Shown here one piece after another: positions 14,304 to 14,432 of a stretch of 20,910 nucleotides of DNA. The notes under the pieces are model-generated. The model was not told the origin of the DNA. It made no database searches and was given only the letters and a program-made list of their open reading frames with translations. Made by a program: the position numbers and the translations under genes. The first letter of the stretch is position 1. Every line of letters starts with the position of its first letter. The stretch comes from a virus (taxonomy: Duplodnaviria > Heunggongvirae > Uroviricota > Caudoviricetes), in IMG/VR virus record IMGVR_UViG_2671181019_000012, positions 1 through 20,910 of that record; one strand, written 5' to 3'.

Positions 14304-14369
14304 CGTACCTCAAATGTCATGAAAGCGTACCTCATATGTCATAAAGGCGTACCTCATATGTCATATAAT
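14304..14369 (+). repeat. Three tandem 22-bp iteron-like direct repeats
   Basis: CGTACCTCAAATGTCATGAAAG / CGTACCTCATATGTCATAAAGG / CGTACCTCATATGTCATATAAT, contiguous. Confidence 0.8.
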
Positions 14370-14410
14370 AAAAAATAAGCAAACAAGTTATACACAATAT
14401 TATTAACAGA

Positions 14411-14432
14411 ATCTGTGGATAAATACACAGAT
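14411..14432. promoter_or_regulatory. DnaA-box-like TGTGGATAA inside a 7-bp inverted repeat, in AT-rich tract
   Basis: TGTGGATAA (14414-14422) equals consensus TTATCCACA on the other strand; flanked by ATCTGTG/CACAGAT. Confidence 0.4.

Follow-up and report, generated by a model that had tools for sequence, protein, structure and literature searches.

The window analysed here, a stretch of 20,910 nucleotides, is a piece of Escherichia coli chromosome that contains an integrative island resembling the IncP-exploiting integrative mobilizable elements (PIMEs). We find that three tandem repeats in a regulatory spacer of this island are almost certainly iterons of the TrfA type, and that positions 14187-14433 almost certainly represent a remnant or a mimic of the replication origin (oriV) of IncP/P-1 clade II plasmids. 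Taking together homology, motifs, geometry, conservation and the absence of a Rep gene, we infer that the island may replicate in trans; that its origin is fired by the TrfA of a helper plasmid has, in our estimate, a probability of about one half.

A sensitive DNA search of the spacer against plasmids matches window positions 14228-14364 at 77-90% identity. The matched plasmids are conjugative (MOBP/MPF_T), 40-70 kb long and derived from E. coli, Klebsiella and Salmonella, each with 5-7 matching places, all of them in unannotated DNA. In pEC187_3 and pKPC2_sg2 the matched DNA is the gap between klcA or higBA and trfA, and the gene beside this plasmid oriV encodes a true TrfA (PF07042, E 1e-139). 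The window iteron TGACAWWTGAGGTAC is identical to the iterons of Enterobacteriaceae IncP/P-1 clade II plasmids, for example pEC187_3; its 16-mer agrees with clade II plasmid iterons at 16/16 positions and is the same as all 9 iterons of the pEC187_3 oriV. Comparison with plasmid iterons thus ends in identity with the TrfA-type iterons of IncP clade II plasmids, and the likeness to an iteron-type oriV pointed out in an initial annotation of this DNA is strongly supported by homology to a TrfA-dependent IncP/P-1 clade II oriV. By hand count, the window iteron TGACAT(A/T)TGAGGTAC agrees at 12/15 positions with the published RK2 consensus TGACA(G/C)(A/T)TGAGGGGC (PMC9499019); a five-iteron fragment of RK2 is found in PMC3273809. 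The IncP/P-1 clade II plasmids, which are adapted to Enterobacteriaceae, are described as having TA at iteron positions 13-14 (PMC9499019).

The likeness extends beyond the repeats. On the strand that matches the plus strand of the window, the plasmid gap opens with a block rich in GC; some seven GGTTAAAGATC-like units phased by 12 bp come next, and then a spacer. Seven iterons of sequence GCGTACCTCAWATGTC(A/G), phased by 22 bp, follow, and after them two DnaA boxes in inverted orientation and two further iterons that abut the end of trfA. Window positions 14187-14433 are collinear with this oriV, as AT-rich AACC/GGTT units, spacer, iterons and DnaA-box pair follow one another in the same order. 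GGTT units (AACC on the minus strand) start at 14190, 14217, 14229 and 14241, the last three in 12-bp phase, and the distance from GGTTAGAG to the iteron is 63 bp in the window as well as in pEC187_3. The DnaA pair TTATTAACA...TGTGGATAA of the window stands where the plasmid has the homologous TTATCCACA...cGTGGATAA (L003 5249-5271). The initial annotation had placed the AT-rich tract on the DnaA-box side; the homologue of the plasmid DNA-unwinding element (DUE) lies on the other side of the iterons, within 14187-14303. A helix-stability profile does not single out the DUE homologue among its least stable windows, and is uninformative on this point because the whole spacer is AT-rich.

The geometry of the origin was measured from the start of the DUE-nearest iteron to each AACC unit, with the RK2 oriV sequence taken from a vector listing in PMC10706280. 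The AACC units lie at +75, +87, +99, +113 and +125 in RK2, at +75, +87, +99, +111 and onwards in clade II plasmids of types a and b, and at +75, +87, +99 and +126 in the island. The offsets +75/+87/+99 are therefore common to all of them, though the RK2 and island spacers are without sequence similarity. TrfA function depends on a precise distance from the iterons to the DUE, and TrfA binds one strand of the 13-mers (PMC4081077). Given that the offsets match those of RK2 and that this spacing is functionally important, the island appears to keep the working geometry of a TrfA origin and not just its repeats.

Tandem Repeats Finder reports the three repeats at 14304-14365 with a period of 22, 2.8 copies, 92% matches and a score of 103, and a repeat search places in-register 22-nt copies at starts 14304, 14326 and 14348, spaced by 22 and 22 bp. 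The 16-nt core CGTACCTCAWATGTCA occurs in three copies with 0 mismatches and has no further copy in the 20.9-kb window, whereas shuffles give an expectation of 0.31 matches even at up to 3 mismatches, which rules out a chance origin. The three contiguous 22-bp direct repeats of the initial annotation are thus borne out by both searches and by the comparison of the core with shuffles. It had also seen a perfect DnaA box inside a short inverted repeat, and both are there: the box TGTGGATAA at 14414-14422, the sole perfect one in the window, lies within an 8-bp inverted repeat (AATCTGTG/CACAGATT, 14410-14417 and 14426-14433). One perfect box is no rarity (0.18 are expected by chance and 17/100 shuffles contain one), and its weight comes from homology to the DnaA-box pair of the plasmid oriV. 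Read as TTATCCACA, it stands 59 bp upstream of the first iteron in the TGACA orientation, on the iteron side opposite the unwinding element. At the RK2 oriV in E. coli, helicase loading needs DnaA (PMC4980987). The segment 14370-14432, once called extremely AT-rich, is AT-rich indeed, at 76% A+T, yet the wording mildly overstates the matter as the whole spacer (14004-14700, 697 bp) has 70% and the window 60%.

The KorA and KorB operators, the transfer origin (oriT) and the PIME context, all of which the initial annotation missed, make sense of the locus. Two tandem predicted KorB operators (OB) precede the DUE homologue and KorA operators (OA) lie beyond the DnaA boxes. The OB consensus TTTAGCSGCTAAA has three matches in the window at up to 1 mismatch, two of them the exact sites at 14026-14053, vs 0.01 expected, and 23/26 positions of the OB pair are invariant across lineages. 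The consensus sequences of both operators are confirmed in PMC2680271, and the korA and trfA/trbA promoters of clade II plasmids have the very same OA and OB sequences. KorB is the ParB of the plasmid (PMC5577506), and the OB pair are for this reason candidate partition sites. On the minus strand at 14499-14471 a promoter-like TTTACA-17-TATTGT would start transcription at about OA1, heading to the iterons. A scan of 13400-14800 for promoters and terminators finds 2 promoter-like sites vs 4.4 in shuffles and yields no secure regulatory logic.

Depending on how sensitive the search is, 80-130 of 5426 complete E. coli genomes have at thrW the module made up of integrase, TrbL, TrbJ, TraJ, a 97-aa protein, the spacer and HigA, which is also present on chromosomal contigs of about 460 and 480 kb of Enterobacter quasiroggenkampii and E. 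vonholyi. A scan for the iteron pattern with one genome per species returns three loci, namely two Enterobacter islands and one Salmonella plasmid contig, a number too small for statistics. In seven island lineages, whose spacers are 67-94% identical to that of the window, there are each time exactly three iterons in 22-bp phase. For IncP motifs chosen a priori (two OB, three iteron cores, the DnaA box and three OA), 97/107 positions (91%) are invariant vs 261/590 (44%) elsewhere (odds ratio 12, Fisher p 1e-20), a comparison that ignores phylogenetic non-independence and is descriptive only. Within the 12-nt iteron cores 32/36 positions are invariant across the seven lineages, and the DUE contributes two conserved blocks, 14187-14203 and 14227-14243, defined by at least 11/12 invariant positions across the same lineages. 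Among islands with invariant iteron cores the HigA-like protein ranges from 46% to 92% identity.

Where the iterons do vary, they do so in a manner that follows the plasmids. We define the dialect of an iteron as the four bases 5' of the CCTCAWATGTCA core, equivalent to RK2 positions 12-15, which are among those reported important for the interaction with RK2/RP4 TrfA (PMC9499019). Every plasmid is homogeneous in its own dialect, which is CGTA in type a, (C/T/A)GCC in type b/c and (C/T)CTA in type d. The island arrays read a, a, a in the window, L016 and L017; a, d, d in L006 and L013; a-like, b/c, b/c in L007 and L014; and d, b/c, b/c in L005 and L011. The last two, with a d-dialect iteron next to the DUE, have offsets of +73/+85/+97, and type d plasmids have +73/+85. 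Iteron substitutions thus avoid the core, cluster in the four specificity positions and take only states found in circulating plasmids. Such variation is not what neutral decay predicts; it is predicted by selection for a match to the helper TrfA or by repeated gene conversion from helpers.

An initiator gene is missing from the island, as had already been remarked: tblastn with the cognate plasmid TrfA reveals no TrfA remnant in the window (best E 0.36), and the full gene list between thrW and the attachment (att) copy, as read from sister genomes, holds no replication gene. A Rep hidden among the hypothetical proteins is unlikely; the 296-aa protein, which is conserved, is membrane-embedded by sequence reading, and the 420-aa protein is part of the cargo that differs between island variants. 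The suggestion of the initial annotation that a Rep could be supplied in trans gains a name from homology, TrfA, while replication in trans itself is something we only infer.

How could such an island replicate? We propose that it retains only the cis-acting sites of the plasmid replication, partition/regulation and transfer systems. Upon entry of an IncP clade II plasmid into the cell, its TrfA would bind the three island iterons and, together with host DnaA at the adjacent box, would open the AT-rich AACC element and load DnaB, so that the excised island circle would replicate as a satellite replicon. KorB and KorA would dock on the island operators, and the helper relaxase and type IV secretion system would move the island via oriT, together with the island's own TraJ. 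Binding of TrfA to the island iterons would also have to couple the island to plasmid copy-number control. The island would then be a repA-less relative of PIMEs that borrows the initiator of its helper instead of encoding its own. Activation in trans is feasible, because an RK2 oriV that lacks trfA in cis stays silent as long as no TrfA comes from elsewhere, and the chromosomal trfA carried by E. coli EPI300 drives RK2 oriV vectors in trans. These copy-control vectors carry oriV alone (PMC10706280); they differ from the island in being artificial, with a full RK2 oriV that is not part of an integrative element. As a tentative extension, the island may be a parasite that works through cis sites only, without a replicase and wired into every IncP control circuit by a minimal oriV mimic for TrfA, KorB/ParB sites serving partition and silencing, sensing operators for KorA and an oriT serving transfer; its mixed-dialect arrays could capture the TrfAs of several helpers and interfere with copy control.

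Several observations weigh against firing of the island origin by TrfA. Every island lineage examined has three iterons, vs a main array of 6-7 and 2-3 more in clade II plasmids (totals are 9 per clade II plasmid and 8 in plasmid c, and RK2 has five plus a separate three). The island has one perfect DnaA box vs a pair in clade II plasmids and four in RK2, and this box is perfect in 5/7 island lineages and mutated in 2/7. The GC-rich segment beside the DUE of the plasmid (L003 4830-4930) has no counterpart in island positions 14054-14186, and 14054-14303 is 71% A+T. Several island arrays mix dialects, and any one TrfA type would bind such an array less cooperatively. Since KorA and KorB act as repressors, they do not readily account for an activation induced by the helper. 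No E. coli genome with both island and trfA plasmid is found among the carriers listed (60 of 69 plasmid carriers), a null that is uninformative given about 1.7 expected by chance. As for the number of iterons, pSC101 replicates with three. PromA-alpha plasmids are reported with three copies of their own putative iteron (PMC9499019).

The strongest rival, which we consider rather unlikely, is that the iterons bind TrfA without firing, so that the locus is a TrfA sink, a handcuffing site or a sensor and not an origin. Pairing with the plasmid oriV or titration of TrfA would lower the copy number or stability of the helper, alongside a TrbK-like exclusion protein, or occupancy by TrfA would tell the divergent genes on either side that a helper is present. 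When a second DNA carries extra iterons, RK2 replication in vitro is inhibited through TrfA handcuffs (PMC5397158), and in RK2 a further cluster of three iterons stands apart from the group of five by the DnaA boxes and DUE. PIME1 lowers the copy number of pB10 by an unexplained "incompatibility", PIMEs at guaA retain 1-2 TrfA-type iterons and an OB next to oriT besides having RepA and iterons of their own, and the parS mimics of SGI1 destabilise its helper (PMC10954446). Moreover, mixed-dialect arrays suit a binding pad for several helpers better than they suit a cooperative origin. Yet a pure binding site needs neither AACC units nor exact +75/+87/+99 spacing nor a DnaA box, and these are conserved across lineages and change together with the plasmid type; as a titrator, three iterons in one chromosomal copy would also be weak. 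The conserved DUE, spacing and DnaA box argue that more than binding has been selected, and a binding role is in any case compatible with origin function and does not exclude it.

It is less probable still that the locus is a non-functional relic, left when an ancestral IncP-like plasmid, or an integrative and conjugative element built from one, fused with an integrative element and its oriV was whittled down to three iterons, with conservation that comes from the neighbouring operators, young age or gene conversion with resident plasmids. In keeping with a relic, every component of the origin is reduced (iterons, DnaA boxes, DUE units and the GC-rich part) and the Rep gene is gone, and plasmid homology in trbJ (94%), oriT (90%) and oriV offers tracts for gene conversion. 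Neutral decay, however, predicts none of three patterns that we observe: exactly three iterons persist in all seven lineages despite spacer divergence to 67-77% identity; substitutions spare the 12-nt core and sit in the specificity positions in plasmid states only; and the DUE spacing is preserved while the spacer sequence is not.

That an island protein, be it the 97-aa protein, the HigA-like regulator or a directionality factor for excision, uses the repeats as operators to control the divergent promoters is very improbable, for although they lie in a 700-bp spacer between two divergent small regulator-like genes, and the two divergent regulators of PIME1 are essential for excision, direct 22-bp repeats with a TGACA..TGAGG core are a TrfA signature, the HigA-like protein diverges while iteron cores are invariant, and the same repeats, 8-9 per plasmid oriV, build origins in plasmids without a 97-aa homologue (tblastn), which likewise disfavours the directionality-factor or regulator sites of the initial annotation. 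A noncoding RNA or small open reading frame (ORF) at the locus is also unlikely, because conservation is block-wise and motif-shaped and Rfam has no match there; its only matches, oriT and PtaRNA1, lie elsewhere.

Of the systems with which the island can be compared, the closest is the oriV of the clade II plasmids (pEC187_3, pKPC2_sg2 and related plasmids of 40-70 kb), the group of pDS1, pMNCG082-1 and pMCR_1511 (PMC9499019). Both have the iteron GCGTACCTCAWATGTCA in 22-bp phase, the order DnaA boxes, iterons, spacer and GGTTAAA/AACC units, the same three offsets, and the same KorA and KorB operator sequences. Apart from its fewer iterons, its one intact DnaA box and its missing GC-rich segment, the island differs in having 4 DUE units vs about 7, in lacking an adjoining trfA-ssb operon and in its chromosomal location within an integrative element. 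With the oriV of RK2/RP4 (IncP-1 alpha) the island shares the core TGACA..TGAGG, a repeat spacing that is 22-23 bp in RK2, DnaA boxes on one side and AACC-ended AT-rich units on the other, and identical offsets from the last iteron. RK2 differs in its specificity positions, GGGGC vs GGTAC in the island, and in having five iterons and four DnaA boxes by the DUE, with the separate three-iteron cluster, driven by its own TrfA.

PIMEs are defined by int, alpA, repA, an IncP-like oriT, traJ, trbJ-K-L and defence cargo, and an IncP plasmid in the cell sets off their excision, replication and transfer, as shown for two PIME1 elements only, with pB10 and pKJK5 (preprint 10.64898/2026.01.12.698999). 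According to the same preprint, the PIME oriV, downstream of repA, has four iterons and a DnaA box; two divergent regulators of PIME1 are essential for excision; helper sensing is unknown and the pB10 copy-number drop unexplained; a replicase was required in the search; and variants without a core component may exist. TrfA, KorA and KorB go unmentioned in it. In a 2017 review of integrative mobilizable elements, GIsul2, the IncP island and BcenGI2 are listed with RepA, RepC or Rep_3, and there is no mention of oriV or of TrfA. The thrW island shares with this family (GIsul2, the IncP island and BcenGI2 included) the integrase, an IncP-like oriT accompanied by a traJ of its own, trbJ-trbK-trbL, large defence cargo and presumably IncP helper plasmids; a small ORF that may encode a regulator stands where PIMEs have alpA, and the trbJ-traJ-oriT DNA of the guaA PIMEs of E. 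coli HS and WS3294A is 83-87% identical to the window. PIMEs differ in that they encode repA (or repA/repC) with their own iterons downstream, whereas the island has no replicase and has iterons of the helper TrfA type, and lies at thrW and not at guaA. The iterons of the guaA PIME of strain HS are of the RepA type, GACARAAYATGCG in four copies, with a DnaA box. Between oriT and repA, guaA PIMEs keep one OB and 1-2 TrfA-type iterons (L009 15540-16020; L010 15620-15710), and the HS element additionally has an OA-like site there, beside its RepA iterons; TrfA-type iterons in repA-bearing PIMEs could underlie the copy-number drop of pB10 reported for PIME1. From its sequence the thrW island appears to be a PIME-like element without repA that has the fullest TrfA-type origin of the family, a type that the preprint survey would have missed because its search required a replicase.

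SGI1 with its IncC helper offers a further parallel as it too is an integrative mobilizable element that replicates only with its helper, and it remodels the helper mating apparatus. SGI1 carries mimics of the helper parS sites by which it hijacks ParAB and destabilises the helper (PMC10954446), to which the twin KorB (ParB) operators of the island are analogous. It differs in that its own Rep and oriV are unrelated to those of the helper, and SGI1 is not known to borrow an initiator by origin mimicry.

It was not until 2026 that IncP-exploiting integrative mobilizable elements (PIMEs, GIsul2 and IncP islands) came to be seen as a single large family, and they are major carriers of anti-phage systems and of some resistance genes. 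The locus bears on three points of the preprint, namely helper sensing, the drop in helper copy number and variants without a core gene, to which it contributes a repA-less PIME-like island, an origin of the helper's own type and predicted KorA, KorB and TrfA sites in a regulatory spacer. To our knowledge, no natural integrative element borrows the replication initiator of its helper by origin mimicry. If TrfA does fire the island origin, this would be the first natural case known of such borrowing, parallel to oriT and parS mimicry; surveys that require a Rep gene would undercount such elements, and chromosomal iterons may influence which IncP resistance plasmids establish in a strain.

Table. 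Features of the thrW island and of the adjoining prophage arm, in window positions.
Feature	Position	Strand	Evidence or remark
Prophage genes: cI-like S24 repressor; N; Dam; integrase	932-1633; 3337-3693; 5120-5677; 6811-7974		
Left att copy, duplicate of the 3' half of tRNA-Thr thrW	7990-8037	-	43-bp perfect repeat with thrW in ETEC6
Island tyrosine integrase	8096-9199	+	Pfam Phage_integrase, E 1.6e-26
trbL; trbK-position ORF; trbJ; traJ	10616-12019; 12013-12186; 12198-12992; 13074-13439	-	Pfam NikA-like, T4SS, TrbL; RefSeq sister genomes
IncP-type oriT	13457-13556	-	Rfam traJ-II, 93 bits
97-aa ORF (93 aa from annotated start 13991)	13710-14003	-	alpA position of PIMEs
Two tandem KorB operators (OB), predicted ParB-type sites	TTTAGCGGCTAAA 14026-14038; TTTAGCCGCTAAA 14041-14053		Consensus match
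Putative homologue of the AT-rich DUE	14187-14250	-	Collinear with the plasmid oriV region of GGTTAAAGATC repeats
Spacer, DUE to first iteron (53 bp)	14251-14303		Length conserved, sequence poorly; about 60% identical to plasmid
Three TrfA-type iterons	14304-14325; 14326-14347; 14348-14369	-	Minus strand reads TGACAT(A/T)TGAGGTACG; Tandem Repeats Finder and plasmid identity
DnaA-box pair homologue	14400-14422	-	Degenerate TTATTAACA 14400-14408 (+); perfect TTATCCACA 14414-14422 (-)
KorA operator OA1	GTTTAGCTAAAC 14453-14464		Exact match; 12/12 invariant
KorA-operator variant	GGTTAGCTAACC 14535-14546		2 mismatches to OA; 12/12 invariant
KorA operator OA2	GTTTAGCTAAAC 14644-14655		Exact match; 11/12 invariant; 46 bp upstream of higA-like start codon
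Orphan HigA-family antitoxin or XRE regulator	14701-14958	+	TIGR02607, E 2e-18; no toxin partner
Cargo: 420-aa protein without family match and MltR-like regulator	15614-17651	-	
Cargo: candidate defence system, PADLOC Hp1/Hp2/Hp3	18166-20910	-	E 1e-80 to 1e-176; first protein with PDDEXK_GAPS4 domain

The first 7974 positions of the window belong to a lambdoid prophage, of which they form the early-left arm. Since this arm ends at the copy of the thrW 3' half, prophage and island appear to be tandem insertions at thrW; on the right the window stops short of intact thrW, and the island between att copy and thrW measures about 13.7 kb, with a repeat of 43-48 bp. Strain ETEC6 lacks the prophage, and there the island borders on the pao genes and on a LysR-family pseudogene. 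In sister genomes the island reads integrase, 296-aa protein, VbhA-family antitoxin, 70-aa ORF, TrbL, 57-aa lipoprotein, TrbJ and TraJ, followed by the 93/97-aa protein, the repeat spacer, the HigA-family protein, the 420-aa protein, an MltR-like protein and a three-gene GAPS4-like candidate defence system. The defence cargo varies between island copies; in sister islands its place is taken by an ABC-three-component system, by CBASS or by a NACHT protein.

The island trbJ has 92-94% DNA identity to trbJ of E. coli IncP clade II plasmids of 47-68 kb (H132-H136), and the traJ-oriT region of the plasmids is about 90% identical to that of the island. The oriT, located upstream of traJ, contains an inverted repeat (13501-13525 and 13528-13552) followed by a nic-like ATCCTGC at 13548-13554. 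Just past the nick region, at 13576-13617, lie two 21-bp direct repeats, CTGTGTACGTATTGTGTATTC and CTGTGTACTCAGTGTGTTTTC, with similar sequence in guaA PIMEs, which may be sites for a relaxosome accessory protein. The trbJ, oriT-traJ and oriV regions are three plasmid-homologous tracts, at which recombination could join plasmid and chromosome in Hfr-like cointegrates or bring about gene conversion. A KorB-like site, TTTAGCTGCTAAA (1 mismatch, 12939-12951), lies within the 5' end of trbJ, where L007, L009 and L010 have a perfect OB. The 57-aa ORF has a lipoprotein signal, LILCSC, and between trbJ and trbL occupies the position of RP4 trbK (entry exclusion); by this lipoprotein the island may keep IncP plasmids out or shift exclusion to its own advantage.

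The initial annotation called the 97-aa protein AlpA-like, a label that family, sequence and structure searches do not confirm. It has no significant match in Pfam, NCBIfam or PDB sequences, its match to the helix-turn-helix regulator of PIMEs is a weak C-terminal motif (E 0.02), and tblastn against the plasmid collection gives only three distant matches, in Pseudomonas and Polaromonas plasmids. A single-sequence AlphaFold (AF2) model is of low confidence (mean pLDDT 68), and Foldseek against PDB finds nothing for it at E <= 0.001. The HigA-like protein is 51% identical to the HigA of the RelE/HigA pair beside the clade II oriV. An Rfam match to PtaRNA1, a plasmid-transferred antisense RNA (type I antitoxin), lies at 10540-10612 on the plus strand with 48.6 bits vs a gathering score of 47, and slightly overlaps the 70-aa ORF (10334-10546, minus strand). 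PtaRNA1, the VbhA-family antitoxin and the orphan HigA are three antitoxin-type genes with no evident toxin partner, and they might have anti-addiction functions.

Several conserved blocks of the regulatory spacer match no IncP site that we can name: 14054-14072 (GTTTGCTAACCAACGTTAT), 14112-14119 (TGTCAACA), 14479-14501 (TAAAATGAAACAAAATGTAAATA) and 14585-14601 (CAACGGATATATCGAAT). In a nine-sequence alignment TGTCAACA is fully invariant, and the other three have at least 11 of every 12 positions invariant. TGTCAACA corresponds to a TTGACA -35 element on the minus strand, facing the 97-aa gene, and CAACGGATATATCGAAT includes the palindrome CGATATATCG. Between OA1 and the OA variant there is a poly-G run of 12 (14505-14516), which has a length of 8, 9, 10 or 12 among island copies at least 99% identical elsewhere and is absent from distant lineages (GGGGG, GAGAG); either it is a spacer prone to slippage, and possibly phase-variable, or the assembly is in error at this homopolymer. 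An A8G7 run at 14684-14698, before the higA-like start, is invariant.

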